Origin: an uncultured Bacteroidales bacterium
GTDB lineage: Bacteria; Bacillota_I; Bacilli_A; ML615J-28; CAG-698
Reading direction: 5' to 3'
DNA length: 64,000 bases
Assembly: GCA_964411675.1 (NCBI GenBank)
Contig: CAYPLR010000002.1
Coordinates: 25,536-89,535, forward strand
Below, in pieces: positions 14,260-56,070 of this stretch (position 1 is its first letter; each line of letters begins with the position of its first letter). The position numbers and the translations under genes were made by a program. Below the pieces are notes generated by a model. That model was not told where the DNA came from and made no database searches. It saw only the letters and a program-made list of their open reading frames with translations.

Positions 14260-14267
14260 GAGTTTAT

Positions 14268-15371: not shown

Positions 15372-15380
15372 GTGAAATTA

Positions 15381-15417
15381 AAAGCAGTATCCTAAGGGAT
15401 GAACACTGCTTTTTTAT
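15381..15417 (+). terminator. rho-independent terminator
   Basis: AGCAGTATCC-taag-GGATgaacACTGCT followed by T6. Confidence 0.65.
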
Positions 15418-15486
15418 TTATCAATTTGATTAGCGCTTTATTTTTTCAGAAAAATTTGATATAATAACACAAGGTGATTGGCTATT

Positions 15487-16314
15487 ATGGAATATATCAG
15501 AATACAAAAATTACAATTTAAGAACATGGAGATTGATATTTCCTTAAATAAACAAGAAATATTTGCAGTTTATTCTTGTGATAAAAAAACGACCCATGAT
15601 TTCTTAATGGTGTTGAATGGAATAAATCCCAATAATGGTAGTTGCTTATATCAAGATAAGGATATTTTTGATAACGAGGATTTTTTTAAACAAAGAATTT
15701 ACATTGATTTTAAAGAATCATATTTAAAGACTATGAACGTTGAGTTTATTCAAGAAGCATTAGCGAATCGATTTAATTTATCATTCAATAAAGAAGCTTT
15801 TAATGCTTATGTACAAGAAATGGGAATTCGGCTTGAAACAAAGGTTAGAGCAAATTACACATTTACGGATACAGGAAATACAATGGTAAATTTCGCTTTC
15901 TTTAAAGCCTTAAATATACCTTTTGTTACGATTAACAACCCTACAATTTATTTGAAAAAAGCAAAGATTATTGAGACGATAACAAATAGTCTAGTAGATA
16001 AAAGAAAATACGAAAGCATTGTTCTTGGTTTGGATAAAATTAAAAACTTTAAAGAAAAGTTAGATAGAGTGTTGGTATTTACAGATTACCAGACATATGT
16101 GGTTGTTAATCCGCAACAAGATAGTTTTTTATTAATTGAAGATAACATTCATTTGCATGATAAAATGTTTCGAACAAAAGAAATCGGTTTAGTTATATGC
16201 TTAAATAATTACACGAAAGAAGAGATGAAGAAATTTAACAATTTTAAATTTAAATATCAAAAACTATCGTTTTATGAATTGGAAGATTATTTTGGTGATG
16301 ATAATGGAAAATAG
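15487..16314 (+). CDS. ABC-transporter-like nucleotide-binding-domain protein with degenerate P-loop
   Basis: Aligns to ABC NBDs (EIFAVYSCDKKTTHDFLMVLNGINPNNGS vs canonical GxxGxGKTTLlxxlxGlxxPxsG), but the Walker A glycines are replaced (SCDKKTT) and no LSGGQ signature is present. RBS AAGGTGA sits 9 nt before ATG 15487. Confidence 0.45.
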   Translation: MEYIRIQKLQFKNMEIDISLNKQEIFAVYSCDKKTTHDFLMVLNGINPNNGSCLYQDKDIFDNEDFFKQRIYIDFKESYLKTMNVEFIQEALANRFNLSFNKEAFNAYVQEMGIRLETKVRANYTFTDTGNTMVNFAFFKALNIPFVTINNPTIYLKKAKIIETITNSLVDKRKYESIVLGLDKIKNFKEKLDRVLVFTDYQTYVVVNPQQDSFLLIEDNIHLHDKMFRTKEIGLVICLNNYTKEEMKKFNNFKFKYQKLSFYELEDYFGDDNGK

Positions 16315-16930
16315 AAAAACACAAAAAAACCTTCATCATTATGAAATCCAATTAATCGTATTGGGAATCATAATTGCTATTTTACTTATCGGTTCTTTGA
16401 TATTAATAAATGGAATAAAAAATCAAGAAATAAAAATAATCAAAAGCAATTTTATGGTAGCTTTATTTTGTAGTTCTATCATGGGGGGTGCTTTTCTCTC
16501 TTTTTCAACAACCAATCGACTTTTAAAGTTTCAAACATCGTTTGGAATTACTCGTAAAAAAATATATAAAGACTATATTCTACGAATTATTCAAGTGTTT
16601 TCTTGGATGATAGGGATCTATTTATTTTATACCATGATGGATTTTATAATAATGGGTCAAAACGTCAGCCTTATCCCAATGCTCTTTGATCAAAAAATTA
16701 TGATTTTAATTTTATTGTTTTTACTAATGAATATGACTGGTTTTTGGTGTGGAATTCGACAAATTAGAATCGAATTGTTTCTAATTATTTTACTAGCTAT
16801 ATTTGCAATAACGTTTTTGTTATATTATTTTCAAATCTATAATATTTTTGTGCTTGGAGGATTTGTAGCCATCATTGTAGGTCTATTTTTCAATAATTAT
16901 AAAACAATCACTAAAGGAAAAATTAGGTGA
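16304..16930 (+). CDS. ABC-2-type-like integral membrane protein (approximately 6 TM)
   Basis: Highly hydrophobic ~208-aa product. Start overlaps the upstream gene (GGTGATGA then ATG 16304). Probable permease partner of 15487. Confidence 0.45.
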   Translation: MENRKTQKNLHHYEIQLIVLGIIIAILLIGSLILINGIKNQEIKIIKSNFMVALFCSSIMGGAFLSFSTTNRLLKFQTSFGITRKKIYKDYILRIIQVFSWMIGIYLFYTMMDFIIMGQNVSLIPMLFDQKIMILILLFLLMNMTGFWCGIRQIRIELFLIILLAIFAITFLLYYFQIYNIFVLGGFVAIIVGLFFNNYKTITKGKIR

Positions 16931-16934
16931 GAAT

Positions 16935-18971
16935 ATGAGTATTTTTAAAAAGCATAGAAAAATATGGTTTATTGTTTTCTTCATCGTGATTAATTTAATT
17001 AATGCAATGATGATTACACAGATTAATAAGACAAACAATTGGCAAGAAACATTAGGGATGACTCTCAATAGTATTTTAGGAAATATTGGTTTCATCGCAG
17101 TTTTATTATCGCTAGCAATACTGTTTTTTGGCCAAGAAAAAAGATTCATGATTTTCTTAGTCATTGAAACAATAATGTTATCTATTTTTTTAATAGCGAT
17201 TACTATGTATTATAATTACTATAAAATGTTTCCTTCTTTTTACAACTTGACTGCTTTTAGTGGAGAATCAAGTGATAGTGCCTTAGAATTTATTATCGAT
17301 TCTCTTGGTGAATTATCAAAAAATATTAAATGGATATTTGGGTTACCAATCATTTTCATTATTGGTTTGTATATTTTTATAAAAAAAACCAATGATTTGC
17401 ATAAGGAAACACCATTTTCTTCAAGGAAGTATCAAGCAAGCATCATTTTTTTGATTGGAGTTTTATTGCTTGGTGGGTCTGAAAAGTTTTATGAACGAAT
17501 TGTTAAAGGGACGTGGCATGAAGAAAACACAACAGTTACCTTTGGATTACAGGCTAAAGGAGTATTGAATTTTTATTTGGGAGAATCGATAGAGTATTTT
17601 ATAATAGGGGAAGAAGAACCTGAACCTGAAAAAATTGAACTACAGCTAGAAGAACTAAAAAAGTATCAAAACGACTCACAGATAAGTTTTATTGACAATA
17701 GTGAAATCAATAATAATGAATTATATAAAGGAATCTTCGCAGAAAAAAACCTGTTATTAATTCAACTTGAATCTGAAAGCAATTTTTTAATTGGATTAAA
17801 AGTAAAAGTAGGTACTGAGTATATTGAAGTAACACCCAATTTGAATCGCTTAGTTGATAAATCAATATATTGTAATCAATTTTATACAACCGTGGGAATT
17901 GGGAATACATCGGATGCAGAATTTACAGCAATGACAGGAATTAATCCTAGTGGGAATCGTTACACTGTTTATGAATACAATAATCAATCCTATGAAACAT
18001 TACCAAACTTGTTCAAAGAAAAAGGTTATTTTACTTTTGCAACACATGCCAATGCAGGATTTTTTTATTCAAGAGAAGAAAACTTTATCAACACATATGG
18101 ATTTGATTTATTTCTTGAAAAAACTTATTTTGAAGAAAGCATCCAGGATTATCAAGATAAAATTGTTCACGAATGGGTGGGCGATGTTAGCTTTTTAGAA
18201 CAAACAGTAAAAGAAATGAGAGTACAAAAAGAGAATACAGGGAAAGCTGTTTTTAGCTACCCTATTACTGTATCGAATCATTTGCCTTACAATTTGAATG
18301 AGGGACAAGATTTTTATGGTCAAAAGGAGTTATTATTTCCTAATGGTGTTGAAGGTATTTCAGAAGATTATATTAATTATTTGGAACATGCTAGTTATAA
18401 TGACTATGCAATCGGGAAAGCAATTGAGGCTTTAGAAAAAGAAGGTCTTGCGGATGATACCGTAATGGTAATATATGGCGATCATGGTTGTGGAATTGAT
18501 ATCTACGAAATGTTTTATCAAACACCTGAACTATTTACCAATGAAATGAATCCAATTATTGAATATGTTGAAGAGGAAAGTTCTAGGAATCTGCTAGAAC
18601 AACAGTTCCTATTAAATGTTCCATTTTTTATCTATGATGTTTCGGAATCAGGAATATTACCACCTCAAACAATCTCTTTAGTTAGAGGGCATGAATCAAT
18701 TAAAAGGACAATTGCCAACTTATTCGGTCTGGATGCTGAGTATTATTTTGGTATCGATATATTAAGCGATGATAAAACCTCTTGTTATAATCCAAGAAAC
18801 TTAACAATTCTTGCAGATGGAATCATTGTTTCAGGAAGTTCAAAGAAAAAGGTCTTTACGGATCAATACGTGTATACAGACGCAGAAATTGATAGAATTA
18901 TTTTAGGAACCCTTGAATACAAAAACATGAATGATAAAATCTTTAAGTATAAAATTTTTCTTGATAAATAA
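16935..18971 (+). CDS. LTA-synthase-family (LtaS-like) phosphoglycerol transferase / sulfatase-fold membrane enzyme
   Basis: Five N-terminal TM helices plus an extracellular sulfatase-fold domain. Catalytic-Thr motif GNTSDAEFTAMTG (LtaS GKTSDSEF). RBS AGGTGA. Confidence 0.8.
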   Translation: MSIFKKHRKIWFIVFFIVINLINAMMITQINKTNNWQETLGMTLNSILGNIGFIAVLLSLAILFFGQEKRFMIFLVIETIMLSIFLIAITMYYNYYKMFPSFYNLTAFSGESSDSALEFIIDSLGELSKNIKWIFGLPIIFIIGLYIFIKKTNDLHKETPFSSRKYQASIIFLIGVLLLGGSEKFYERIVKGTWHEENTTVTFGLQAKGVLNFYLGESIEYFIIGEEEPEPEKIELQLEELKKYQNDSQISFIDNSEINNNELYKGIFAEKNLLLIQLESESNFLIGLKVKVGTEYIEVTPNLNRLVDKSIYCNQFYTTVGIGNTSDAEFTAMTGINPSGNRYTVYEYNNQSYETLPNLFKEKGYFTFATHANAGFFYSREENFINTYGFDLFLEKTYFEESIQDYQDKIVHEWVGDVSFLEQTVKEMRVQKENTGKAVFSYPITVSNHLPYNLNEGQDFYGQKELLFPNGVEGISEDYINYLEHASYNDYAIGKAIEALEKEGLADDTVMVIYGDHGCGIDIYEMFYQTPELFTNEMNPIIEYVEEESSRNLLEQQFLLNVPFFIYDVSESGILPPQTISLVRGHESIKRTIANLFGLDAEYYFGIDILSDDKTSCYNPRNLTILADGIIVSGSSKKKVFTDQYVYTDAEIDRIILGTLEYKNMNDKIFKYKIFLDK

Positions 18972-32606: not shown

Positions 32607-33533
32607 ATGAAAAAAGCATTATTATTGTTTATTTTAATAGGAATTGTAATGATGATTACAGGGTGTAAATTAAGCGATCAAGCAGATATCTATACCACTG
32701 TTTATCCAATTGAATTTGTCACAAAGGAAATTGTGAAAGACAAAAAAATAGTCAAGTCTGTTTATCCCCGTGGAGGAGAAGTTCATGACTATGAACCATA
32801 TCCTAAACAAATTATAGCAATTGCTGATTGTGATATTTTGTTTTATATTGGATTGGGATTAGAGCCCTTCATAGAGAATGCGTTAACAACAACTTTTAGT
32901 AATTTGAAAACTGTAAAAGTAACGGATGGCTTACAACTTGTTGAAATGGATGGGACACACGTTCATGGCGAGGGAGAAAGTAACCACGAAGGTGAGATTT
33001 ATGACACTCATGTTTGGCTAGATCCGATTTCCTTAATAGGAATAACGAATACAATTCTTCAAGAATTAATCCTAATATATCCTGAATATACAGAAGAGTT
33101 CACAAACAATGCCAATGCATTAGTTTTAGAACTAGAAATACTAAATAATGAATTTGTTGAAGCATTGATGGATGAAACAATCACGAGTAAAACAATTATG
33201 GTTGATCATGATGCTTATGCTTATTGGACATTTCGTTATGGAATTAATCGTATTAAATTACGTAGTGACAACGAAAGTAATGAAGTTGATGCGGCAACTC
33301 TAATAGAAAAAATTAATCAAGCAAAAGAATTGGGAATTAAATATATAATTGCTTCTAAAAATGAAACAAAATCAGCGTTGTTCGATCAATACTTATCAAA
33401 TTTAAATGCGGAACAAGAAGAATTACATCATTTAGGAACGATAACAACCAACGAATTAAAAGCTGGTAAAAATTATTTAACAATTATGCGAGACAATTTA
33501 CAGGTATTAATTAAAGTTTTACCACGTGAATAG
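32607..33533 (+). CDS. metal (Zn/Mn) ABC transporter substrate-binding lipoprotein, ZnuA/TroA family
   Basis: Lipobox ITGC. Metal-binding motifs DTHVWLDP and HDAYAYW. No cognate permease or ATPase adjacent. Confidence 0.75.
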   Translation: MKKALLLFILIGIVMMITGCKLSDQADIYTTVYPIEFVTKEIVKDKKIVKSVYPRGGEVHDYEPYPKQIIAIADCDILFYIGLGLEPFIENALTTTFSNLKTVKVTDGLQLVEMDGTHVHGEGESNHEGEIYDTHVWLDPISLIGITNTILQELILIYPEYTEEFTNNANALVLELEILNNEFVEALMDETITSKTIMVDHDAYAYWTFRYGINRIKLRSDNESNEVDAATLIEKINQAKELGIKYIIASKNETKSALFDQYLSNLNAEQEELHHLGTITTNELKAGKNYLTIMRDNLQVLIKVLPRE

Positions 33534-33568
33534 GATAAGAATTTATACGTAAAAAAAGCAAAAAAGGC

Positions 33569-33597
33569 TTGCATTTCATCTTCATTTATAGTAAAAT
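33569..33597 (+). promoter_or_regulatory. sigma-A promoter for the tRNA pair
   Basis: TTGCAT, a 17-nt spacer, then TAAAAT, 30 nt upstream of tRNA-Tyr. Confidence 0.65.
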
Positions 33598-33626
33598 AAT
33601 AAGGCAGTTTAAAAACTGCTTAAATT

Positions 33627-33711
33627 GGTGGGGTAGCGAAGTGGCTAAACGCGGTGGACTGTAAATCCACTCTCTCCGAGTTCGGTGGTTCGAATCCACT
33701 CCCCACCACCA
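33627..33711 (+). tRNA. tRNA-Tyr (GTA), type II with long variable arm, CCA encoded
   Basis: Acceptor GGTGGGG/CCCCACC, anticodon loop cTGTAAa, long extra arm CTCTCCGAGTTCGG, T-arm GGTTCGAATCC. Confidence 0.9.
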
Positions 33712-33765
33712 TTATTCTCTTTACGTTCTAAAAAGTACCTTTATGTACTTTTTATGACAGGTTGT

Positions 33766-33841
33766 AGGGCTATAGCCAAGCGGTAAGGCAACGGACTTTG
33801 ACTCCGTCATTTCTCTGGTTCAAATCCAGATAGCCCTGCCA
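33766..33841 (+). tRNA. tRNA-Gln (TTG), CCA encoded
   Basis: Acceptor AGGGCTA/TAGCCCT, D-arm AGCCAAGCGGTAAGGC, anticodon loop cTTTGAc, T-arm GGTTCAAATCC. Confidence 0.9.
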
Positions 33842-33865
33842 TTTTTTATTTAAAATAGATCAATC

Positions 33866-33903
33866 AAATCTCTATCTACATGTAGTATAGAGATTTTTTA
33901 TAT
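33866..33903 (+). terminator. rho-independent terminator after the tRNA genes
   Basis: Imperfect hairpin ATCTCTATCTACA / TGTAGTATAGAGAT followed by T6. Confidence 0.6.
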
Positions 33904-33972
33904 TATATATAAAGTACATATCTATTATGTACAAAGCACATAATAAATATGTACTTTGTAGATTCAAATGTA

Positions 33973-34001
33973 TTGCGTAGAATAGTTAAGTGTGATAAAA
34001 T
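33973..34001 (+). promoter_or_regulatory. sigma-A promoter with extended -10 for the LRR lipoprotein gene
   Basis: TTGCGT, a 17-nt spacer, then TGaTAAAAT. Confidence 0.6.
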
Positions 34002-34149
34002 TTAATCAAAGATAGAATTTATTTGTTGGCTTTTGTTTTTGCGGTTGTTTCTAGAGAAAAACAGGTGTAAAAGCTAATAACCTCTCTAGAAGAAAACCAC
34101 ATCGTGGCTTTTTTGTTATAGATCGAAATAGATTATAGACGGAGGGAAT

Positions 34150-35622
34150 ATGAAAAAAATCTATACAATATGTTTCGTTTTATTAGGATTATTACTATTG
34201 TCAAGCTGTAAGCCAGAAAAAGAAGTAAGTAGCATTGAAGTAATTATGGATAAAGTCATGTATAATATCGAGGATTTTTCATTATCAGATATCAAGATAA
34301 AAGTAAATTATGGTGATAATTCAAATGAGACCATTCCTCTAGATAAAAGCATGATTTCAAGTGAAGACCAAACTCGCCTTAAAACACCTGGGTATTACTA
34401 TATTTGGGTTAATTACAAGGGAAAAGCAGCAGAAATGGAGATTTACTTAGCAATCGTTCATACAGTCAGTTTTGGAGAAATTTCTCAAGTAGAAGTAGTT
34501 GATGGAACCTATGTATGGAAGCCAATAGATCCGCAACAAGAAGGGAAAATTTTTGAAGGATGGTACTTAGATAGTGCTTTAACAATCATGTATAATTTTG
34601 ACACAGCGGTTACTTCCGATTTGAAACTTTATCCTAAGTGGTATGAGCAATCAATGGATACTTCCGATTTTATCATTGAATATACTTATTATGGATATAG
34701 TGTTGTGAGTTATTTAGGAAACGATCAAACAATTATAATCCCTACTACTTATAATGATGGGATAAATGGTTCTGGTCCAGTAGTTAGAATTGCTGATGAT
34801 TTATTTAGAGAAAATAGTGACCTTATTAGTGTTACCTTACCGAATAGTATTCAATATATTGGTGAATTTGCATTTGGCTATTGTGACTCATTACAAACAA
34901 TAAATTTTCCGAATGGACTTTTGGAAATTGATGATTATGCGTTTTATTCGTGTACAAGTCTACAAAACATAACATTACCTAATACAATAACAAAAATTAA
35001 TAAAGGAACCTTTGCAGATTGCGATACATTAACAACAGTGATCATTCCTCAAGGAGTTGAAAGAATAGAAAATAGTGCTTTTAATGATTGTGATAGTTTA
35101 GTAACAATTAGTTTTCCTCAAAGCTTAATCGCGCTAGGAGAAGAAGTATTTATGCATTGTCCCAATATTAAAACAATTTCACTTCCTAATAGTGTTACAG
35201 CTGTTGGCCAAGGAGCATTCAACGAATGTGATGGTTTAACTAGTATTACTCTTTCAAATAATTTACAAGCAATTGATGCATGGACTTTTGCTTATTGTTC
35301 AAGTTTGACTAGTATCAATCTTCCAACTGGAATTACTGAAATAGGAAGTTATGCTTTTACAGAAGCAACGGGTATTACGAGCATTACACTTCCAGCAACG
35401 GTAACCAAAATAGATTTTGGAGCTTTTGAATACTGCACGGCTTTAAAAACTTTATTTATTCCTAGTAGTGTTATAACAATTACTGATTCTATAGCTGAAG
35501 GATGTAATGAATTAACAATATACTGTCAAACTGGTTCAAAACCATTAGGATGGAGTGAAAAGTTTAATCGTTTAGATTCGTGGGGTGGAGTAGTTACTGT
35601 TGTATGGGGGTATAATAATTAG
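34150..35622 (+). CDS. surface lipoprotein with Listeria-Bacteroides repeat and BspA-type leucine-rich repeats
   Basis: Lipobox LLSSC. The repeat EGKIFEGWYLDSALTIMYNFDTAVTSDLKLYPKW, then ~9 tandem about 23-aa LRRs of the form IPxxVxxIxxxAFxxCxxLxxI. Confidence 0.75.
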   Translation: MKKIYTICFVLLGLLLLSSCKPEKEVSSIEVIMDKVMYNIEDFSLSDIKIKVNYGDNSNETIPLDKSMISSEDQTRLKTPGYYYIWVNYKGKAAEMEIYLAIVHTVSFGEISQVEVVDGTYVWKPIDPQQEGKIFEGWYLDSALTIMYNFDTAVTSDLKLYPKWYEQSMDTSDFIIEYTYYGYSVVSYLGNDQTIIIPTTYNDGINGSGPVVRIADDLFRENSDLISVTLPNSIQYIGEFAFGYCDSLQTINFPNGLLEIDDYAFYSCTSLQNITLPNTITKINKGTFADCDTLTTVIIPQGVERIENSAFNDCDSLVTISFPQSLIALGEEVFMHCPNIKTISLPNSVTAVGQGAFNECDGLTSITLSNNLQAIDAWTFAYCSSLTSINLPTGITEIGSYAFTEATGITSITLPATVTKIDFGAFEYCTALKTLFIPSSVITITDSIAEGCNELTIYCQTGSKPLGWSEKFNRLDSWGGVVTVVWGYNN

Positions 35623-35654
35623 CAAATACATGATAATATTGCGAAATATTTGCA

Positions 35655-35685
35655 GATTCTAAAGATTTTCTTTAGAATCTTTTTA
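35655..35685 (+). terminator. rho-independent terminator
   Basis: GATTCTAAAG-atttt-CTTTAGAATC followed by T5AATT. Confidence 0.75.
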
Positions 35686-35852
35686 ATTAAGGAGGGAAAT
35701 TCACTTTATTCTAAAAAAGCGTTGTCTTTTCCTTATCTGTATTATATAATTATGCTTAAGGGTAATTTTTTAAAGTAGATAACAAAAAACACCTTGATAG
35801 CTACTTACTTTTTATTGTGGGATAATAAGATTAAACGTAAAGAGGAAAATGA

Positions 35853-38800
35853 ATGAATCTTAAAAAAACAATTCTGGTTATTGATAAAGATTATCAAGAA
35901 TCTATTTTTTTAAACGATTTTTTAGCTAGTGAATTTGATGTTTTAACAATCAATGATGAATGTATCATAAATAATATAATCAATACCCAAAAAGAAAATT
36001 TGTTAATCATTTTAATTAGTGATACATTTATGAATGAAAATATTACAAGCAAAGGTGTTATTGATAGAATTAAGGCTCTAAAAATTCCTTTATTGGGAAT
36101 TGTGAGTCAAAAAGGGAATGGCGAAGAAAAAAAATTCTTAGACTTAGGAATTATTGATCTTTTATATAAACCCTTCACTTATGGCGATGTTTTTGGGGAA
36201 ATAGTAAATATCGTTAAAAAAGACAAAACTCAAAAACAATTACAACTTATTATGGATAATATTACTGGAGGAGTTTTGCTTATTGATGTGGGAGAAACCC
36301 TTCGATGTTTATATGTAAACCAAGGCTTTTTTAGTTTTAGTGGGTATAGTGAAGAAAAATATCATCAAAACATGCAAATAGATATTGCAAGATATATTTT
36401 TTCTGAGGATGAACCTTTTGTAAGAAACCAATTAACACAAGCTGTAAAGGATAATAAACCTTTTTCTTTTGATTTTCGTACAACAATTAAAGAAAATGAA
36501 ATTAGATGGTTTTATGCACAAGGAACACCAATAAAAGATAATGAAACTACAGATTCGATGGTATTGGTTTTATTAACTGATATAACAAAATTAAAGAATG
36601 CCGAAGAAGAACTTTCACGAACTTCCTCTCAGTTGTCAATGATTATCAAAAATTTAAACTGTGGAATTGCCATTTTTTTATTAGATGAAGATATTGAACT
36701 ACTTTATGGGAATGGAACTTTATCAAAATTAATGGGATTTAAAAATGATGAAATTCGCAATTTATCAAGCGAATCCTTATCAAAATGTGTTTATGAAAAA
36801 GATTTTGAGAAATTTAAAAAGTATTTAAAAGAAGCTAGCCAAGAAAAAACAGATTCAAAAATAGATATAAGATTTATAAAAGGAAATGCAACCATTAACT
36901 GGGTTCGATTTAACGCGGAAAGAATCAGTGAAAATAGCAATAAATCATTAGTATACGGTATATTCTTAGAAATTAATAAGGAAAAAGCTCAGGAAGAGCA
37001 TACACAAAAAACAACAGAAGAACTAACATATCGTGCCAACTATGATTTATTGACAGGCGTTTTTAATAAAACAGCATTTTGTAATGCTACCTATACGATG
37101 CTTAAAATTTATCCTCAGAAGAAATTCATTCTTACTATGTGGAACATCGAGCAATTTAAAATTATTAATGATTTATTGGGAATCAAAACAGGAGATAGAA
37201 TTTTACAAATAATCGCTAATCGTTTTGCAAACATATTATCTGGTCAAGGTACTTATGCTCGAGCTGAAGCAGATCACTTTGTAACGTGCTTTCCAAAAGA
37301 TCAATTCGATGTTGAAGAAATCTTAAATGATATCGTTAATAGTATTGGACAATTGAAAATACAAAATCAAATTAGAATTGTTGCAGGAATCTATGAAGTA
37401 GATGATATTAATATTCCTGTTGAACAAATGTGTGATCGTGCAGCATTAGCTATGCAGACAATTAAAGGAAAATTCTTAAAGAACTTTGCTTATTATGATG
37501 ATCATTTGCGACTGAGCCTAGTTGTAGAGCGAGAGATTGTTAACGAAATGATACAAGCAATTGAGAATCGAGAATTTACAATTTACTTACAACCAATTTA
37601 TAGTCTTGCAAAGAATGAAGTAATCGGTGCAGAAGCATTAGCTAGATGGATTCACCCTCAAAAAGGAGTCATCAGCCCAAGTGTATTTATTCCTGTTTTT
37701 GAAAGAAATGGGTTTATTGCAAAATTGGATTACTATATTTGGGAAGAAACATGCCGTTATATTCGTAAACGAATGGATGAAAATAAGAAACTGATTCCTA
37801 TTTCTGTCAACGTATCACGATTAAGTTTATATAATCCTTTTTTGTGCGAAGAAATTGTTGAATTGATTGATAACTATGGAATAAATCATAATTTATTACG
37901 CTTTGAAATTACAGAAACAGCGTATAACGATAATCCAAAACAATTATTATCAACAATCAGTAAAATGAAAAAAGAAAAACTAAAAATTATGATTGATGAT
38001 TTTGGTAGTGGATATTCATCATTGAACGCATTGAAAGAAATACCAGTAGACATTATCAAAATGGATATGAAGTTTCTAGAAGGAGTAAAAGAATCGAATC
38101 GTGCTGATAGTATCTTAACTTCTGTTATTAGAATGGCAAAATGGATAGACAATCCAGTGATTGCTGAAGGAGTAGAGACAGAGACACAACTACATTTCTT
38201 GAAGAGTATTGGTTGTGATCGAATTCAGGGATATTATATTTCTCCGCCATTACCAGTAGAACAATTCGATAAATATCTTGAATCGAATCCTAAAGTATAT
38301 ATCGGAGAAGCACCCCTTCAATTGGTTGTCGATCAACTTGATTTAGGTGCACTATTCAGTGGGAATCCACTCTTGACTTATTTTTTAGATAACATCGCAA
38401 GTGGTGTAGGAGTTTATGAATTTTATAAAGGGAATTTAATTGGACTTAGAGTTAATAATGCTTACTATAAAATCATGGGTTACACGAAAGAGACCTTCTT
38501 GCAAGATGCAAAAAGCATTTTACAACAAGTTTATGAAGAAGATAGAAAAAAACTTATCGATGCTTGTAAATTAGTAATTAGTAATAAGAAACCAGAAAAA
38601 TTATTATTTAGAAGATATCGTGCCGATAAAGTAATTATCTGGTTGGATTCAAATATTAATTATTTAGGTGGATCAAAGAAAAAGCCTTTGATATCGATTA
38701 CTATTAGTGATGTTACTATTAGTGTTCAAGATAGAAAACTATTGAGTTATCAAGAAGAAACCATTATGCGATCATATCGTTTCCTAGCAAAATTATATGA

Positions 38801-40427
38801 TACGATTCCTTGTGGTATTATTCAGTTTACGTTAGCAACAAATCCAAAAGCAGTTGCTGCCAATCAGTCAGCATGTAAGATGCTTGGATATGCCAATGAA
38901 AAAGATTTTGTTGAGACTGTGGGGAAAGATCTTTCTAACCTTCTTGTAAAAGGAACAAATAAGTTTGTCAATAAACAAACATACAAGGAATTAAAAGAGG
39001 GAAAACAACTCAATTACGAAGTCGAGTTTAAAAAGAAAAACGGTAGTTCAGGTTGGTATCGTATCACGATCTATCAATTAACCAATGTTGAAGGAATAGA
39101 GGTAATTCAAGGAGTATTTATTGACTTTAGCGAAGATAAAACTAAATTGATTACCACGAAAGAAAACATCTCAATTTTAAATCGTTCTCTTGATTTTTTA
39201 AGAGTTGGGGTTGTTTGCTGGGAACAAGATAGCAAAATCAAGATTGCTTTAATCAATAAAAAAATGAGCGAAATGTTGGGTTATTCTCATCAAGAATATT
39301 GTAAATTATTCTCATCGGGTAAAATTGATAATAATACTAAAATAGAAGATCTTAAGTTTAATTATGAGGAATTGAAGAAACTCCAAAGCAACGAAGAAAA
39401 AGTTGTTGAATTAACTAGAAAAGATAATAGTAAAATTATTGCTAAGATTAATTTATCTATCGATACTAGCGAAGGACAAGATTCTTATCAAGCAACAGTA
39501 ATAGATATTACCAAAGAATATCAAGAAAACAAGGAAATAAACAGTAAAATTGATTTATATGAGAATTTATTGTGTATTCCTAAAAGCTATATATTCGATT
39601 ATAATATCAACAGCAAAGTTTTAAAATACTATAGGCCAGATAAAGAAGAAAATAAAGACACGAATATTGTTGAAAACTTCAACACAAAAATTGTGAAATA
39701 TAAAAATATACACGAAGATTATATTAAAGAATTCACAAAAATCTTCTTAAAAAAATACGAACAAGAAACGAAAGACAGTTTAGAATTTCTCGCCAAATTC
39801 AATAGTCCTGATTTCAATTGGTATCGTATTACTTATAAAGTTATTAAGGATGAAGAAAAAAAAGGTTTTCGTGTCATCGGTAGTGTTTGCAATGTTCATT
39901 CCGAAGTAGAAAAAGTAATCAGGATGAAAGAGCGTTCCCAAAGAGACATTATGAGTGGGCTTTACAATCGGGCAGTTACTGAAGAATTGATAAAAAGTAA
40001 ACTTTGTGAAATGAAAAGAAATGAAACATTTACTTTTTATATGATAGATATCGATCAATTTAAAGAAATTAATGATGAATATGGTCATTTAATTGGGGAT
40101 AGATTAATTTTAAAAATATCAAACATGTTAAAGCAAAAATTCGATTCTAAAGCAATCATAGGTAGACTGGGTGGGGATGAATTTGCGGTTTTATCTATGA
40201 CAGAAAACAGTGAAGAAAAAGCAATTCTTAAAGCAGAAGATATTCTTCAAGCGACAAGAGATTTGAGTAAAACAATGAATGTTAAGCTAAAAATTACAAC
40301 AAGTGTAGGGATAGCGATGGCTCCTCGCGATGGAAAAGCATTTAAGACACTATTTATGAATGCTGATAAAGCAATGTATAAAGCTAAAAACGAAGGAAAA
40401 GATTGTTGTAAGGTTTATCAAGACTAA
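35853..40427 (+). CDS. multidomain c-di-GMP turnover/sensor protein: REC-like - PAS - degenerate GGDEF - EAL - PAS repeats - GGDEF
   Basis: 1524 aa. N-terminal CheY-like fold (VIDKDY...LLIILISD...LYKPF). First GGDEF degenerate (RAEADHF in place of RxGGDEF; DID replaced by WNIE). EAL domain with all catalytic signatures (EALARW, QPIY, VNVS, FEITET, DDFGSGYSS, KMDMKF, AEGVET, QGYY). C-terminal GGDEF intact (RLGGDEFAVL). Extended -10 TGtGGGATAAT and RBS AAGAGGAAAA upstream. Confidence 0.85.
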   Translation: MNLKKTILVIDKDYQESIFLNDFLASEFDVLTINDECIINNIINTQKENLLIILISDTFMNENITSKGVIDRIKALKIPLLGIVSQKGNGEEKKFLDLGIIDLLYKPFTYGDVFGEIVNIVKKDKTQKQLQLIMDNITGGVLLIDVGETLRCLYVNQGFFSFSGYSEEKYHQNMQIDIARYIFSEDEPFVRNQLTQAVKDNKPFSFDFRTTIKENEIRWFYAQGTPIKDNETTDSMVLVLLTDITKLKNAEEELSRTSSQLSMIIKNLNCGIAIFLLDEDIELLYGNGTLSKLMGFKNDEIRNLSSESLSKCVYEKDFEKFKKYLKEASQEKTDSKIDIRFIKGNATINWVRFNAERISENSNKSLVYGIFLEINKEKAQEEHTQKTTEELTYRANYDLLTGVFNKTAFCNATYTMLKIYPQKKFILTMWNIEQFKIINDLLGIKTGDRILQIIANRFANILSGQGTYARAEADHFVTCFPKDQFDVEEILNDIVNSIGQLKIQNQIRIVAGIYEVDDINIPVEQMCDRAALAMQTIKGKFLKNFAYYDDHLRLSLVVEREIVNEMIQAIENREFTIYLQPIYSLAKNEVIGAEALARWIHPQKGVISPSVFIPVFERNGFIAKLDYYIWEETCRYIRKRMDENKKLIPISVNVSRLSLYNPFLCEEIVELIDNYGINHNLLRFEITETAYNDNPKQLLSTISKMKKEKLKIMIDDFGSGYSSLNALKEIPVDIIKMDMKFLEGVKESNRADSILTSVIRMAKWIDNPVIAEGVETETQLHFLKSIGCDRIQGYYISPPLPVEQFDKYLESNPKVYIGEAPLQLVVDQLDLGALFSGNPLLTYFLDNIASGVGVYEFYKGNLIGLRVNNAYYKIMGYTKETFLQDAKSILQQVYEEDRKKLIDACKLVISNKKPEKLLFRRYRADKVIIWLDSNINYLGGSKKKPLISITISDVTISVQDRKLLSYQEETIMRSYRFLAKLYDTIPCGIIQFTLATNPKAVAANQSACKMLGYANEKDFVETVGKDLSNLLVKGTNKFVNKQTYKELKEGKQLNYEVEFKKKNGSSGWYRITIYQLTNVEGIEVIQGVFIDFSEDKTKLITTKENISILNRSLDFLRVGVVCWEQDSKIKIALINKKMSEMLGYSHQEYCKLFSSGKIDNNTKIEDLKFNYEELKKLQSNEEKVVELTRKDNSKIIAKINLSIDTSEGQDSYQATVIDITKEYQENKEINSKIDLYENLLCIPKSYIFDYNINSKVLKYYRPDKEENKDTNIVENFNTKIVKYKNIHEDYIKEFTKIFLKKYEQETKDSLEFLAKFNSPDFNWYRITYKVIKDEEKKGFRVIGSVCNVHSEVEKVIRMKERSQRDIMSGLYNRAVTEELIKSKLCEMKRNETFTFYMIDIDQFKEINDEYGHLIGDRLILKISNMLKQKFDSKAIIGRLGGDEFAVLSMTENSEEKAILKAEDILQATRDLSKTMNVKLKITTSVGIAMAPRDGKAFKTLFMNADKAMYKAKNEGKDCCKVYQD

Positions 40428-40457
40428 AAGAGCGCATCAAGAATGCGTTCTTTTTTT
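40428..40457 (+). terminator. rho-independent terminator
   Basis: AGAGCGCAT-caaga-ATGCGTTCT followed by T7. Confidence 0.8.
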
Positions 40458-40548
40458 ATTATTGGAGAAACAATTCAGCGAAAGCCTTTACAAAAATCAC
40501 GAATTTTATTATAATGTATATAATTATAAATACAATAAGAGGGACATT

Positions 40549-41181
40549 ATGGAAAGAACTGTGGCAAAGTGCTTATTAGAAATAAAAGCCATATTTTTTG
40601 GGTTTTCAACCGAGTATATCTCTTCTAAAGGTGAAAGATTGCCGGTTTACTGTAACAATAGAGTAATTCTATCTTATCCAAGAGTAAGAAAAGTAATCAC
40701 TAAATGGTTAACTAATGTAATTAAGGATACTTATCCTGATGTAGATATGATTATTGGAACGTCAATTGCAGGAACTTCCTTCGCTGTTTTAATCAGTGAT
40801 GCTTTAAGTGTTGCATCAGGATATGTGTTAGAAAATGATGCAATGCGTGAATCTGATGAAAGAATTAGGGAAGCGTTTAAACCTGGTGCAAAAGTAGTGG
40901 TTATTGATGACACAATTCGTACAGGAGCAACAATTATAAGTGTTACAAAAACATTGAGGAAATTTGGATGTGAAGTGCTTGGAGGCGTTGCATTATTTTC
41001 CTATGAACTAGAAAGAACAGAAAAAATGTTAGCGGAAGAACATATTAAATATACAGCACTAACAAATTTTGATACCGTTACTTTGATTGGGCAGCAAACA
41101 GGAAGAATTAGTTATAACGAATATGTTCAAGCTCTAAAATTCAAGAACGAGCCATTTGCTGATGAGTGGCATAAAAAGTAA
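40549..41181 (+). CDS. orotate phosphoribosyltransferase (PyrE) homolog with divergent catalytic loop
   Basis: 211 aa, collinear with PyrE (LLEIKAIFFGF...PVYCNNR...SYPRVR; PRPP motif KVVVIDDTIRTGATI). The flexible-loop region reads LENDAMRESDERIREA instead of the Lys-rich SKAKGHGKGNQIEG-type loop. AGAGGGA precedes ATG 40549. The ORF-track 5' extension overlaps the upstream gene and lacks an RBS. Confidence 0.65.
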   Translation: MERTVAKCLLEIKAIFFGFSTEYISSKGERLPVYCNNRVILSYPRVRKVITKWLTNVIKDTYPDVDMIIGTSIAGTSFAVLISDALSVASGYVLENDAMRESDERIREAFKPGAKVVVIDDTIRTGATIISVTKTLRKFGCEVLGGVALFSYELERTEKMLAEEHIKYTALTNFDTVTLIGQQTGRISYNEYVQALKFKNEPFADEWHKK

Positions 41182-52705: not shown

Positions 52706-52830
52706 GGTAATAATCTCGCTTTAAGTACCCATATTCAATATTAAGCAGTGAATCAGGTCAGGTCGTGATTGAAGCAGCCTTAAGCTTAACTTAGTATGTG
52801 AGTATGGGTACTTAAGGTGAGATTAATTAG
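52706..52830 (+). ncRNA. ffs: signal recognition particle RNA (small 4.5S/scRNA type)
   Basis: Conserved domain-IV sequence AUCAGGUCAGGUCGUGAUUGAAGCAGCC (cf. CCAGGUCAGGUCCGGAAGGAAGCAGCC). About 23-bp terminal helix UAAUCUCGCUUUAAGUACCCAUA / UAUGGGUACUUAAGGUGAGAUUA. The tadA-SRP RNA position is as in Bacillus. Confidence 0.8.
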
Positions 52831-53862: not shown

Positions 53863-56070
53863 ATGATAACAAAATCGATGCATGTTCAAGACAATGTTTT
53901 ATATATGGGAGAATATAGTTTAGTAGATCTTGCAAAAAAGTATGGAACTCCCCTATATGTATATGATGAAGTAGGAATAAACAATAAAATAGAAAAATTT
54001 AAAAACAATTTTAAAAGCAATCAATTCGAATGTGAAGTAGTATATGCTTCTAAAGCATTTATCGCACCATATTTATGCAAGATTCTTGCTCAAAATAATT
54101 TTAGTATTGATTCTGTGAGCGAAGGAGATTTATATTTAATTAATAAAAGTGGCTTCCCAATGAATAAAGTAGTTGCTCATGGTAATAATAAACTAATGAG
54201 TGAATTGATGCTAGCTTTAGATTATGGAGTAGAATATTTAGTTGTTGATAATCTTACTGAATTATTAAAATTAGAATATTTAGCTAATCGAAAGCAAAAA
54301 CCCTTAAAGACATTAATTAGAGTTAATCCAGGGATTGAAGCTCATACACATGCTTACATTGAGACTGCAAATTTAAGCTCTAAGTTTGGTGAGTCAATTT
54401 TTGCTACCGATATTTTAGAACAAATGATAGCTGTTTATCGCAATTCAAAATATTTAACTTTAGAAGGATTCCATGCGCATATAGGTTCACAAATTAATAA
54501 TCCCAATAGTTTTCTTTCAGAAGTAAAAACGATGTGTCAATTCATGCGTAACTTTTCAGAAAAAACAGGATTTTCTTTTCGAGCATTAGATATTGGTGGT
54601 GGCTTTGCTATTAAATATTTGGATGATGATGTTGAAATAGATTTACCTACCATGTTACAGTTAATTGTGAAAGCAGTAGAAGAAGAAAATGCAAAATCAG
54701 AAACAATGAAAATTGAAAAATTGATGATAGAACCAGGAAGATCACTAGTAGGTGATTCTGGAGTTACGCTTTATACATGCGGAAGTAAAAAGACAACCTA
54801 TAATGGTAAAAATTATATCTTTGTTGATGGTGGAATGTCAGATAATATTCGTCCCGCTTTATATCAGGCAAAATACTCAGTTGATGTAGTGAATCATGTC
54901 GTTTCACCAACAAAAGAAAAATATGATGTGGTTGGAAAATGCTGCGAAAGCGGGGATATCATTGTCACTGATACAATGATTGGTGAAATTCATAAAGGCG
55001 ACATTATGGTAGTGTATTCTACTGGTGCTTATTGCTATTCAATGTCAATGAACTATAACAGCTTAGCAAGAGGTGCAGTTATTTTTGTAAATGGGGATAA
55101 AATTACAACAGCAATAAGGAGACAAAGTTTTGAACACATGTTTGAAACCTGTGTTTTTGAGGAGAAAGATATGAAGATATTTGATATTCACAGCGATATG
55201 TTATATGATTTGAATAAACAAAGCTTATTAGGAAACCATACAAGATTTAAAGATTACCATGTTCCTCAATTGCAAAATAGTTGCATTAAAGGAGCAGTTT
55301 GGACGATGTATTCACCTGATGATTTCAATTTATTGGAAGCGGTGAAGCGAGCAATCAACAAAATTGATTTACAGGAGTTACCAGGGTTTGAAGTTATCTT
55401 GGGGCTTGAAGGGCTACGAAACCTAGAAAAAGTGGAAGATATCAACCAATTATACGAACTAGGCTTTAGACATGCGATGCTAACATGGAATGAAGAAAAC
55501 AAATATGCGACGGGTGTTGGAGGCAATGCAAATAGAGGATTAACTGAAGAAGGCATACGTCTAGTAAAACGCATGGAAGAACTAGGTATGATTATTGACT
55601 TGGCGCATTTAAATGAAAAAAGTTTTTATGATGTCTTAAAAGTTGTAAACAAGAATATTGTTTATTCTCATGGATGTGTAAAAGACATTTGTAATCATCG
55701 TCGTAATGTCACAAATGAGCAAATGCTTGCTTTAAAAGCAGTTGATGGTTTGTTAGGATTAACACTAGCAAAAAACTTTGTGAGTCCAATAGAAGAAGAA
55801 AAAGATTTGGCCCACTTCTTAAATCATCTAGATAAAGCGATAGATGTAATGGGAATCGATCATGTTTGCTTTGGCTTTGATTTCATGGATTATTTGTCAG
55901 AATTTCCTAATGATAATATCATTGATGTACCAAATGCAACAAAAGCATTTCGCATTATTGATGGAATGAGAGAAAGAGGTTACACGGAAGAAGAAATAGA
56001 AAAGATTTGTTGGAGCAATTTTTACAATCGATATAAAAACAAGGTTGTCTTAAGAGGAGAAAAGAAATGA
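53863..56070 (+). CDS. lysA: diaminopimelate decarboxylase (LysA, aa 1-436) fused in frame to an M19 membrane-dipeptidase-family domain (aa 437-735)
   Basis: N-terminal part has LysA motifs (YASKAF PLP-Lys, GGGF, EPGRSLVGDSG, CCESGD). C-terminal part starts MKIFDIHSDMLYDL with M19 His/Asp/Glu metal ligands. An intact SD GAGGAG sits 6 nt before the internal ATG 55171. The junction is on T5 (55154-55158). Confidence 0.7.
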   Translation: MITKSMHVQDNVLYMGEYSLVDLAKKYGTPLYVYDEVGINNKIEKFKNNFKSNQFECEVVYASKAFIAPYLCKILAQNNFSIDSVSEGDLYLINKSGFPMNKVVAHGNNKLMSELMLALDYGVEYLVVDNLTELLKLEYLANRKQKPLKTLIRVNPGIEAHTHAYIETANLSSKFGESIFATDILEQMIAVYRNSKYLTLEGFHAHIGSQINNPNSFLSEVKTMCQFMRNFSEKTGFSFRALDIGGGFAIKYLDDDVEIDLPTMLQLIVKAVEEENAKSETMKIEKLMIEPGRSLVGDSGVTLYTCGSKKTTYNGKNYIFVDGGMSDNIRPALYQAKYSVDVVNHVVSPTKEKYDVVGKCCESGDIIVTDTMIGEIHKGDIMVVYSTGAYCYSMSMNYNSLARGAVIFVNGDKITTAIRRQSFEHMFETCVFEEKDMKIFDIHSDMLYDLNKQSLLGNHTRFKDYHVPQLQNSCIKGAVWTMYSPDDFNLLEAVKRAINKIDLQELPGFEVILGLEGLRNLEKVEDINQLYELGFRHAMLTWNEENKYATGVGGNANRGLTEEGIRLVKRMEELGMIIDLAHLNEKSFYDVLKVVNKNIVYSHGCVKDICNHRRNVTNEQMLALKAVDGLLGLTLAKNFVSPIEEEKDLAHFLNHLDKAIDVMGIDHVCFGFDFMDYLSEFPNDNIIDVPNATKAFRIIDGMRERGYTEEEIEKICWSNFYNRYKNKVVLRGEKK

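Follow-up and report, generated by a model that had tools for sequence, protein, structure and literature searches.

Can one polypeptide that carries an EAL domain and an intact GGDEF domain both hydrolyse and synthesise c-di-GMP, and what would set the balance between the two activities? The question is raised by a 1524-codon open reading frame on the forward strand of a 64-kb window (the whole stretch of DNA analysed; Table 1). This ORF is real and intact. Its length would not be explained by chance in DNA of about 30% G+C, where we estimated stop codons at about 8% of random triplets; an identical protein (P0001) is encoded on four independent contigs, and full-length orthologues of 1524 aa occur in several uncultured Bacilli/Acholeplasmataceae assemblies. 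No transmembrane segment was predicted in the protein (Kyte-Doolittle means over 19 residues peak at 1.36), by which it is predicted to be soluble. The analysis bore out the domain order given in a preliminary description of the locus: a receiver-fold domain, two PAS domains, a degenerate GGDEF (EADHF), an EAL domain, three further PAS domains, a probable sixth PAS and a C-terminal GGDEF. No second REC, GGDEF or EAL protein is present in the 64-kb window.

Table 1. Features of the signalling gene, its product and the upstream flank
Feature	Coordinates	Strand	Evidence or details
Upstream gene	34150..35622		490 aa; lipobox-type signal (LLLSSC), LRR_5/Flg_new repeats
Terminator-like hairpin ending the upstream LRR-lipoprotein gene	35654..35680	+	12-bp stem, then T-run
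Conserved promoter block (CACTTTATTCTAAAAAAGCGTTGTCTTTTC...TATTATATAATTAT)	35702..35753	+	10/12 match
Shine-Dalgarno-like AGAGGA	35841..35846	+	6 nt 5' of ATG; read from sequence
Whole CDS	35853..40427	+	ATG to TAA, 1524 aa + stop
Receiver-fold domain, aa 1-125	35853..36227	+	AF2 model, Foldseek, hhalign, phmmer
PAS 1, aa 126-250 (Pfam about 129-248)	36228..36602	+	PAS_3 47.6 bits, PAS 37 bits
PAS 2, aa 255-378 (Pfam about 270-375)	36615..36986	+	PAS_9 27.3 bits
Degenerate GGDEF, aa 392-545 (Pfam 395-538)	37026..37487	+	GGDEF 69 bits
EAL, aa 560-805 (Pfam 567-799)	37530..38267	+	225-230 bits, profile positions 5-236 of 236
PAS 3, aa 841-960 (Pfam about 865-955)	38373..38732	+	PAS_3 43.9 bits
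PAS 4, aa 975-1098 (Pfam about 978-1094)	38775..39146	+	PAS_9 38.2 bits
PAS 5 (weak), aa 1108-1225 (Pfam about 1115-1222)	39174..39527	+	PAS_9 24.3 bits alone, below the 27-bit cut-off
Probable sixth, divergent PAS-like unit, aa 1232-1358	39546..39926	+	hhalign, AF2, Foldseek
C-terminal GGDEF, aa 1362-1524 (Pfam 1363-1517)	39936..40424	+	132 bits, profile positions 2-160 of 161
Intrinsic-terminator-like hairpin overlapping the stop codon, then T-run	40426..40454	+	12 pairs

The EAL domain had been described as fully conserved, and its catalytic set is complete (Q580, E594-A-L, R598, N653, E685, E688, D715, D716, K736, D738, E772, E775 and Q792, with DFGSGYSS as loop 6). Seven proteins share all of these residues, with overall identity as low as about 27-29%, and the motif set is also invariant in five to six orthologues including the most divergent one (L009, 51% identical). 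The best PDB relatives of the domain, MorA (E 6e-52), MucR, TBD1265, DosP and RocR, are enzymatically active EAL proteins. The C-terminal GGDEF domain likewise retains all of its active-site residues (D1399, N1407, D1416, GGDEF at 1440-1444, K1512 and K1516), as the earlier reading of its motif implied, and the DxD-type Mg-binding, N/D guanine-binding and GGDEF residues are invariant in all orthologues. In the PDB it is closest to REC-GGDEF cyclases and MorA, and it looks like a catalytically competent diguanylate cyclase domain. An RxxD I-site is absent from this domain, where the position reads DSKA. It is the best-conserved domain of the protein, with 73% identity to L009, followed by the EAL domain (70%), while the sensors range from 26 to 59%. 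Invariant catalytic residues in both domains, alongside diverging sensors, point to selection on catalysis in both.

The middle GGDEF does look inactive, with EADHF (472-476) in place of GGDEF and N431 in place of the Mg-binding Asp. The stretch WNIEQFK..EADHF is kept in close orthologues (WNVEQFK in L009), and judged on these alignments the EADHF and D-to-N changes show conservation, not decay. Both guanine-contact positions, N439 and D448, are retained; all seven proteins of alignment A1 share them along with G443 and G447, although the full-length L009 ORF has Ala at position 439. The domain had been suggested to be an allosteric pseudo-GGDEF. As read from the sequence it lacks an RxxD I-site, so that, if it is allosteric, it would be a GTP-type rather than a c-di-GMP-type sensor, and the two retained residues (one of them Ala in L009) indicate that it possibly binds GTP. 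PdeA (CC3396) of Caulobacter is reportedly a GTP-activated phosphodiesterase in which a PAS domain and a degenerate GGDEF (GEDEF) precede the EAL domain. The present protein resembles it in having a degenerate GGDEF directly before an active-type EAL, with N439 and D448 compatible with GTP sensing, but its A-site is more degenerate (EADHF, Mg-Asp replaced by Asn) and PdeA has no second, active GGDEF.

At least five PAS-like segments had been noted in the protein. Five have Pfam matches, four of which reach the cut-off when the segments are scanned separately, and the count is probably six. PAS 2 aligns with PAS 1 in hhalign at 98%, and the weak PAS 5 aligns with PAS 4 at 65% and with PAS 2 at 72%. 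The candidate sixth unit, less well supported than the others, has no Pfam match; it aligns in register with PAS 2 (hhalign 52%), and in its low-confidence AF2 model (pLDDT 57) strands and helices follow one another as in a PAS domain. The top 50 Foldseek matches to this model are all PAS/LOV domains (TM about 0.5). Neither a LOV motif nor an obvious haem motif was found in the PAS units of the protein sequence.

The N-terminal domain had been called a receiver, and this stands only as regards its fold and its profile-profile matches. The AF2 model (pLDDT 83) has a (beta-alpha)5 layout, the top 50 Foldseek matches are all receivers (TM about 0.75), phmmer against the PDB returned receiver domains only (E 0.002-0.7) and hhalign matched the domain of the close orthologues to canonical REC (97.6%, E 3e-12). 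However, Pfam Response_reg (PF00072) gives no match to the domain even at E<=10, and the signature positions (D11, K12, D57, S85 and K106) are atypical: the hhalign alignment places D57 on the phospho-acceptor and K12 on the second acidic Asp (CheY D13), and this Mg-binding position is Lys or Asn in every close orthologue. K106 is Gln in three close relatives (P0003, P0004 and L006), L009 has Gly in place of D57, and the Thr/Ser position varies among orthologues. Given the missing Pfam match, K12 at the Mg-Asp position and the drift at the other signature residues, the domain is most probably a pseudo-receiver or an atypical one, for which a cognate histidine kinase is probably the wrong thing to expect.

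Phosphorylation-switched REC-GGDEF-EAL proteins have been reported (for example Legionella Lpl0329), and D57 could in principle be phosphorylated by an orphan histidine kinase encoded at another genomic locus, which would switch the protein between phosphodiesterase and cyclase. Besides the fold and the profile homology, this reading can draw on the retention of D11, D57 (in an ISD context, like ISD57 of CheY) and K106 followed by P107, and on the canonical, Pfam-positive receivers that precede the same degenerate GGDEF-EAL core in two clostridial relatives (L012 and P0007). We consider it unlikely, given the substitutions listed above and the fast evolution of the receiver-fold domain, the least conserved of the protein (26%, compared with 70% in the catalytic domains). 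The cognate kinase that the preliminary description had proposed to look for is not among the ORFs scanned in the 64-kb window. A natural Lys at the CheY-D13 position has been tied to poor phosphorylation in a REC-LOV-GGDEF enzyme (CpRldC-type), and CheY D13K is also less well phosphorylated (PMC13501900). The likeness, taken from the published description, lies in this Lys in a receiver that precedes a c-di-GMP enzyme; the CpRldC-type protein differs in having a LOV domain, a single GGDEF and no EAL (PMC13501900).

The protein is thus probably a soluble enzyme that both makes and breaks down c-di-GMP under the control of several sensors, with two regulatory-catalytic modules on one chain and a non-phosphorylated pseudo-receiver. 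Module 1 (aa 1-805) would be a phosphodiesterase, in which the receiver-fold domain, two PAS domains and the dead GGDEF control an intact EAL that linearises c-di-GMP to pGpG. The receiver-fold domain would most likely be a pseudo-receiver that serves dimerisation or regulation and needs no phosphorylation, and the dead GGDEF would most likely be structural or allosteric, possibly a GTP sensor like PdeA. Module 2 (aa about 840-1524) would be a diguanylate cyclase, with four PAS-type units steering the dimerisation and alignment of the GGDEF domain, which would convert two GTP to c-di-GMP. Because the cyclase lacks an I-site, we propose that product feedback comes from the EAL in cis rather than from allosteric inhibition. 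The two PAS arrays may sense different signals and so shift the balance of synthesis and hydrolysis.

Intact motifs are no guarantee of activity, and in vivo many GGDEF-EAL proteins display just one of the two activities. One of the two catalytic domains could serve as a c-di-GMP or GTP sensor or as a protein-interaction surface, leaving net hydrolysis or net synthesis only, a common behaviour of composite GGDEF-EAL proteins for which PdeR/YciR (a trigger enzyme) and FimX and LapD (both receptors) are models. FimX of Pseudomonas aeruginosa, which is said to be a c-di-GMP receptor with a receiver-like domain, a PAS domain and degenerate GGDEF and EAL domains, shares the order of the N-terminal half, including the non-canonical receiver-like domain and the degenerate GGDEF. 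Its EAL, however, only binds c-di-GMP, whereas the catalytic set is complete here, and a C-terminal cyclase module is absent from FimX. EAL and GGDEF domains of the receptor type have usually lost catalytic residues; in the present protein all of these are invariant while the sensors diverge. [quoted passage not shown] On balance, a single-activity or mainly scaffolding protein appears somewhat less probable still than a kinase-driven switch.

The gene forms its own transcription unit, in agreement with the earlier view of it as monocistronic and terminator-flanked. The promoter-like site (35722-35750) combines a -35-like TTGTCT with a -10 TATAAT at a spacing of 17 nt. About 45 nt of the block are invariant in four orthologous loci, including L009, where the flanks have diverged and another gene lies upstream, and AGAGGAA is likewise kept across the aligned loci. 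The 3' hairpin lies at the same place in the four loci with differing stem sequences, and is followed by a second promoter-like site (40487-40515). A mechanically called ORF (40360..41181) that overlaps the 3' end of the CDS was rejected; gene calls on the identical contigs start the downstream gene at 40549. The preliminary description implied that the protein is dedicated to regulating the adjoining LRR surface lipoprotein, as an adhesin-control module. This would fit both their adjacency (in the window and at the loci of P0002 and P0004) and the common control of adhesins by c-di-GMP, but it is very improbable. The upstream gene varies in size (490 aa in two loci and 1009 aa in a third) and is missing from the otherwise syntenic L009 locus, the signalling gene has a conserved promoter of its own beyond the terminator that ends the upstream gene, and even a permissive search threshold revealed no c-di-GMP riboswitch upstream of either gene. 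A functional link between the two genes is therefore not supported.

Among known systems, the proteins nearest in sequence beyond the orthologues themselves come from uncultured Clostridia (L012 and P0007, the latter NLD20383.1), and their degenerate GGDEF-EAL core is 30-42% identical. They are uncharacterised proteins, with the layouts REC-degenerate GGDEF-EAL and REC-degenerate GGDEF-EAL-PASn-GGDEF, respectively. P0007 also ends in PAS repeats and a GGDEF-type domain (motif GGDEY). Both differ in their canonical receivers (78-85 bits in Pfam) and in having no PAS between the receiver and the degenerate GGDEF, and P0007 is longer (2122 aa), with many more PAS units. The DosC-DosP (DgcO-PdeO) pair of E. 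coli consists of a sensor cyclase and a sensor phosphodiesterase that are co-expressed and work as a complex. It too brings together antagonistic, separately sensed activities, and DosP has the layout PAS-PAS-degenerate GGDEF-EAL; however, in that pair two polypeptides are made from a single operon and O2 is sensed through haem, whereas here there is one polypeptide in which no haem motif was recognised.

The closest layout is that of Cph2 (Sll0821) of Synechocystis sp. PCC 6803, GAF-GAF-GGDEF(HGDGF)-EAL-GAF(CBCR)-GGDEF with a degenerate first GGDEF, in which both the EAL and the C-terminal GGDEF are reported to be active and the C-terminal sensor-GGDEF is an autonomous cyclase module (PMC10124867). 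The two proteins share the order of a sensor array, a degenerate GGDEF, an EAL, a second sensor and a C-terminal GGDEF, a likeness of layout, with no orthology implied. Cph2 senses light through bilin-binding GAF/cyanobacteriochrome domains, whereas the present protein has a receiver-fold domain and probably six PAS-type units, and its host belongs to an uncultured Bacilli/Acholeplasmataceae lineage. The 1524-aa protein is thus an ordinary, uncharacterised case of a layout known from Synechocystis Cph2.

The signalling gene is one continuous reading frame of 1524 codons, running from ATG to TAA on the + strand at 35853..40427. The window is AT-rich (~30% G+C), and because we estimate that stop triplets make up ~8% of random codons at this composition, a frame of this length is not a product of chance. 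A fusion of two genes through sequencing error is ruled out: four independent metagenome contigs code for the identical 1524-aa product (P0001), and the full-length orthologues P0002, P0003 and P0004 (84%, 77% and 75% identity, respectively) are likewise 1524 aa long. A further orthologue, at 51% identity, is encoded at the locus L009. The metagenome-assembled genomes of the orthologues are named "Bacilli bacterium" or "Acholeplasmataceae bacterium", and their only annotation for the product is "EAL domain-containing protein". One of these genomes (JAQUVC01, Bacilli bacterium STD2_158) has 91%-identical copies of the gene on two short contigs (L005 and L006), both truncated at the contig end; either strain heterogeneity or a pair of recent paralogues at which the assembly broke could account for them.

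Pfam scans of the whole protein and of ten overlapping segments recovered the domains in the order given in the preliminary description (see table), and the multi-domain protein described there stands. No Pfam match was obtained for aa 1-130 or aa 1225-1370 in either the full-length or the segment scans. A membrane sensor was rejected as no hydrophobic segment was found in the protein, which is therefore cytoplasmic. The named NCBIfam equivalogs (DibA, DosP, GepA, PdeR-like, LapD and others) all scored far under their curated cut-offs, the best being DibA (376 bits, cut-off 980), and the only NCBIfam models passed were the domain models GGDEF and sensory_box.

Features of the signalling protein (aa), its transcription unit and an RNA gene of the window (window positions)
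Feature	Position	Strand	Evidence
PAS	aa ~129-248		Pfam, above cut-off
PAS	aa ~270-375		Pfam, above cut-off
GGDEF (degenerate)	aa 395-538		Pfam, 69 bits
EAL	aa 567-799		Pfam, 225-230 bits, full profile
PAS	aa ~865-955		Pfam, above cut-off
PAS	aa ~978-1094		Pfam, above cut-off
PAS, weak	aa ~1115-1222		PAS_9, 24.3 bits, under the 27-bit cut-off
GGDEF	aa 1363-1517		Pfam, 132 bits
Terminator-like hairpin closing the upstream gene	35654-35680		Terminator scan
Promoter-like site of the signalling gene, TTGTCT-17-TATAAT	35722-35750		Promoter scan
Hairpin overlapping the stop codon of the signalling gene	40426-40454		Terminator scan
Strong promoter-like site of the next gene, 11/12 match	40487-40515		Promoter scan
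Bacterial small SRP RNA gene	52722-52817	+	Rfam RF00169, 53 bits

The EAL domain matches PF00563 (cut-off 31.3 bits) over profile positions 5-236 of 236. Its residues were checked for the QP, ExLxR, N, ExxE, DD, KxD, EGVE and QG motifs (metal, substrate and general base), at positions that we take to be catalytic from studies of RocR and TBD1265. The set is complete (Q580-P, E594-A-L with L596, R598, N653, E685-x-x-E688, D715-D716, K736-x-D738, E772-G-V-E775 and Q792-G), with D715-D716 in the stretch DDFGSGYSS, and loop 6 reads DFGSGYSS, which matches the expected DFG(T/A/S)GYSS. These residues and loop 6 are invariant in all orthologues and in a seven-protein alignment that reaches ~27-29% overall identity, and the catalytic residues are the same as those of MorA, which is the nearest solved structure (E 6e-52), followed by MucR, TBD1265, DosP and RocR. 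The domain is thus predicted to belong to the catalytically active class of c-di-GMP phosphodiesterases. The C-terminal GGDEF domain (PF00990) resembles solved cyclases in a PDB search and carries an intact GGDEF motif at 1440-1444, with D1399, N1407 and D1416 within IDIDQFKEINDEYGHLIGD; all of these are invariant in orthologues. There is no RxxD I-site five residues before the motif, where the sequence is DSKA (NSKA or GSKA in orthologues); such a site is frequent in GGDEF cyclases and not obligatory.

The middle GGDEF domain (aa 392-545) retains its Pfam fold match and has EADHF at 472-476 in place of GGDEF and N431 in place of the Mg-binding Asp, both kept in close orthologues. The guanine-contact residues N439 and D448 are retained in most relatives (N439 is Ala in L009), and RxxD is absent in the sequence alignments. 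This pattern points to a degenerate, non-cyclase domain that is maintained by selection. A GTP-sensing role is possible by analogy with PdeA/CC3396, whose degenerate GGDEF domain reportedly senses GTP. The earlier reading of the three domains, an inactive-looking GGDEF, a fully conserved EAL and a C-terminal GGDEF with intact motif, is upheld by this conservation.

At least five PAS-like segments had been proposed, and that count holds with four units over the Pfam cut-off when scanned as separate segments and a fifth, weak one. In the full-length Pfam scan, PAS_3 and PAS_9 each matched four stretches. A sixth PAS is probable at aa 1232-1358: hhalign aligns this segment, which has no Pfam match, to the second PAS in register with 52% probability. 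The AlphaFold2 model of aa 1226-1362 has low confidence (pLDDT 57) and a PAS-like order of strands and helices; with this low-confidence model all 50 of the top 50 Foldseek matches are PAS or LOV domains (TM ~0.5), a supporting hint only. A crude motif check found no NCRFL-type or CxxCH motif indicative of a LOV or haem PAS.

The N-terminal domain was previously called a receiver. Its fold is confirmed, although aa 1-130 give no match to Pfam Response_reg (PF00072) either in the full-length scan or, even at E<=10, when scanned alone, and the acidic pocket is incomplete. When aa 1-130 were compared with the PDB by phmmer, the only matches were receiver domains, with weak E-values (0.002-0.7). 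The AlphaFold2 model built from seven relatives (pLDDT 83) has a CheY-like (beta-alpha)5 layout, and the 50 PDB structures that Foldseek ranks closest to it are without exception response-regulator receivers (TM ~0.7-0.79). With hhalign, a profile of the six close orthologues alone aligned to canonical receivers (E. coli CheY and those of two uncultured-Clostridia relatives, L012 and P0007, NLD20383.1) with 97.6% probability (E 3e-12). We consider the receiver fold real because these four lines of evidence agree. A profile search with the N-terminal domain, in which the profile included one canonical receiver (P0007), retrieved >200,000 proteins, many of which matched in several places; the hits are unannotated and are taken to be the receiver superfamily.

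In the hhalign alignment, D11 falls on the first acidic Asp, D57 on the phospho-acceptor and K106-P107 on the conserved Lys-Pro. Pairwise HMMER alignments to PhoP and 3N53 shift D57 by two to three residues relative to the phospho-acceptor, whereas the profile-profile alignment and the AlphaFold2 strand boundaries place it at the acceptor position, and these were followed. The second Mg-binding Asp position (CheY D13) is occupied by K12, and the acidic pair (CheY D12, D13) is thus incomplete; five orthologues have DK at the D11-K12 pair and one has DN. Gln replaces K106 in P0003, P0004 and L006, L009 has Gly for D57, and the Thr/Ser position, S85 here, varies among S, N, H and T across the orthologues, in uncertain register. 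In a REC-LOV-GGDEF enzyme, a natural Lys at the site equivalent to CheY D13 is associated with poor phosphorylation (PMC13501900), and CheY D13K is less efficiently phosphorylated yet behaves as constitutively active (PMC13501900; bioRxiv 10.1101/781468). Judging from these residues, the domain is probably a pseudo- or atypical receiver, and it seems unlikely that D57 is still phosphorylated in the window protein specifically. The preliminary description suggested seeking a cognate histidine kinase elsewhere in the genome; within the window, Pfam scans of 30 other ORFs gave housekeeping functions and no such kinase, and when the protein's own REC, first PAS, GGDEF and EAL domains were used as phmmer queries, the signalling protein was the sole match among all ORFs of the window.

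Between the window protein and its L009 orthologue, identity is 70% in the EAL domain, 73% in the C-terminal GGDEF and 26% in the receiver-fold domain, the least conserved of all domains. The far better conservation of the catalytic domains than of the sensors fits selection on both activities together with diversifying sensor specificity. When window 29689-50325 is compared with L009, the flanking genes are mostly ~75-87% identical (LysS 87%, SHMT 83%). By these identities, the signalling protein evolves far more quickly than the majority of the genes around it, with the receiver-fold domain the fastest part.

The gene had been described as monocistronic and flanked by terminators, and this is corroborated by the hairpins on both sides and by comparison with orthologous loci. 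Four orthologous loci share an invariant block of ~45 nt that includes the -35 and -10 elements (the leader is unconserved), and in each of the four a terminator hairpin follows the stop codon, with differing stem sequences. Monocistronic expression is well supported because of this conserved promoter block and hairpin. A mechanically called ORF (40360-41181, +, 273 aa) shares the signalling gene's final 68 nt. The downstream phosphoribosyltransferase (PyrE-like, under the equivalog cut-off) starts at 40549 by gene calls on identical contigs, past the terminator and the promoter-like site. In L009, the longer leader of the orthologue contains at ~4330-4370 a GC-containing hairpin followed by T's (GGCGTTTTTTTAAGGAAAAGAACGC), which is absent from the window leader and could be a lineage-specific attenuator.

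The upstream gene (34150..35622), earlier described as adhesin-like, encodes a lipoprotein with BspA-type LRR_5 repeats. It adjoins the signalling gene in the window, but the adjacency is not conserved. The lipoprotein is 490 aa in the window and at the P0004 locus and 1009 aa at the P0002 locus. In L009 the LRR gene is absent: a zinc-binding lipoprotein gene is followed by a gap of ~585 nt and then directly by the signalling gene, and all other neighbours are syntenic with the window. A conserved adhesin partnership was rejected, the LRR gene being missing in L009 and of another size in the locus L018. Rfam searches of the whole window (gathering threshold) and of 33500-36000 (E<=1) detected no c-di-GMP riboswitch or cis-RNA, the matches being two tRNAs, the SRP RNA and sub-threshold chance matches only. 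Because the LRR gene varies or is absent across loci and no riboswitch is detectable, the adjacency is read as a variable insertion beside tRNA-Tyr and tRNA-Gln with no conserved functional pairing. The slot between this tRNA pair (33627-33841) and the signalling gene is variable (window 33533-35650; L009 3878-4463; L018 617-3646) and looks like a variable surface-protein cassette beside tRNA genes. Directly past the two tRNA genes lies a nearly perfect AT-rich hairpin (33913-33955, 20-bp stem), called on the minus strand in the terminator scan, for which Rfam gave chance-level miRNA-family matches.

Other parts of the window also merit mention. An ECF-type sigma factor gene (3971-4525) is surrounded by three ORFs of 530, 361 and 194 aa (2279-3871, 4509-5594 and 5637-6221, all +) for which Pfam gave no match at E<=1e-5; the 361-aa one overlaps the sigma factor gene at its end and could encode the corresponding anti-sigma factor. 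Genes for an MBOAT acyltransferase, a DHHW protein and an LtaS-like sulfatase-family protein (678 aa) at 12856-18971 (+) represent cell-envelope polymer modification and synthesis in an Acholeplasmataceae/Bacilli-labelled lineage. At 53863-56070 (+), a 735-aa ORF joins an ornithine/DAP/arginine decarboxylase (Orn_Arg_deC_N and C-terminal sheet domain) to a C-terminal M19 membrane-dipeptidase, an unusual-looking fusion.

PAS domains are known to control GGDEF enzymes via dimer geometry. In the mechanism that we propose, one chain would hold two modules. In the first, the pseudo-receiver, two PAS units and the dead GGDEF would control the EAL phosphodiesterase; in the second, four PAS-type units would control the GGDEF cyclase, presumably via dimer geometry. 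As neither GGDEF has an I-site, control by product would fall to the phosphodiesterase in cis. A comparable arrangement has been experimentally characterised in Cph2 of Synechocystis, in which the first GGDEF is degenerate (HGDGF), the EAL is active, and the C-terminal GGDEF is active under the control of a sensor (PMC10124867). The two proteins share the module order sensor-GGDEF-EAL-sensor-GGDEF, with the first GGDEF degenerate and the EAL and last GGDEF intact. However, Cph2 has bilin-binding GAF/CBCR photosensors, whereas the window protein has PAS units and a receiver fold. By its predicted domains the signalling protein is an architectural analogue of Cph2 outside the Cph2 family, since full-length and segment Pfam scans gave no GAF match and its sensors are PAS and receiver-fold domains. 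The clostridial relatives, both with canonical receivers, have the layouts REC-GGDEF-EAL (L012) and REC-GGDEF-EAL-PASn-GGDEF (P0007), the GGDEF before the EAL being degenerate in each. In a biased sample of 105 retrieved homologues, 90 are plain GGDEF-EAL proteins and only six have a GGDEF after the EAL. This layout is uncommon and already known; a literature search on "GGDEF-EAL-GGDEF" as a phrase found nothing, and the precedent was reached via Cph2. c-di-GMP enzymes have long been known in Acholeplasma, with 14 GGDEF/EAL proteins in Acholeplasma laidlawii (PMC2408644).

A more speculative idea, by analogy, is that the pseudo-receiver may be a ligand-binding feedback sensor, perhaps for c-di-GMP itself, which would make the single polypeptide a self-contained c-di-GMP set-point controller. 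For Caulobacter ShkA, the pseudo-receiver is described as binding c-di-GMP (PMC10333796; bioRxiv 10.1101/675454). No c-di-GMP-binding motif was identified in the pseudo-receiver studied here, and we regard the idea as very improbable. If it were true, product sensing by the pseudo-receiver would stand in for the missing I-sites and would tune the EAL in cis against the GGDEF in cis, in a small-genome Acholeplasmataceae-like lineage.

Overall, the earlier reading of the gene was largely right, with two amendments: the N-terminal receiver should probably be called a pseudo-receiver, and no link to the adhesin is supported. The annotation "EAL domain-containing protein" could be upgraded to predicted bifunctional PAS-regulated diguanylate cyclase/phosphodiesterase with an atypical receiver, and the significance beyond annotation is small. 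The protein would be a non-photosensory counterpart of the Cph2 layout and another natural receiver with Lys at the Mg-binding Asp position, and it could serve to ask how antagonistic modules on one chain avoid futile cycling.
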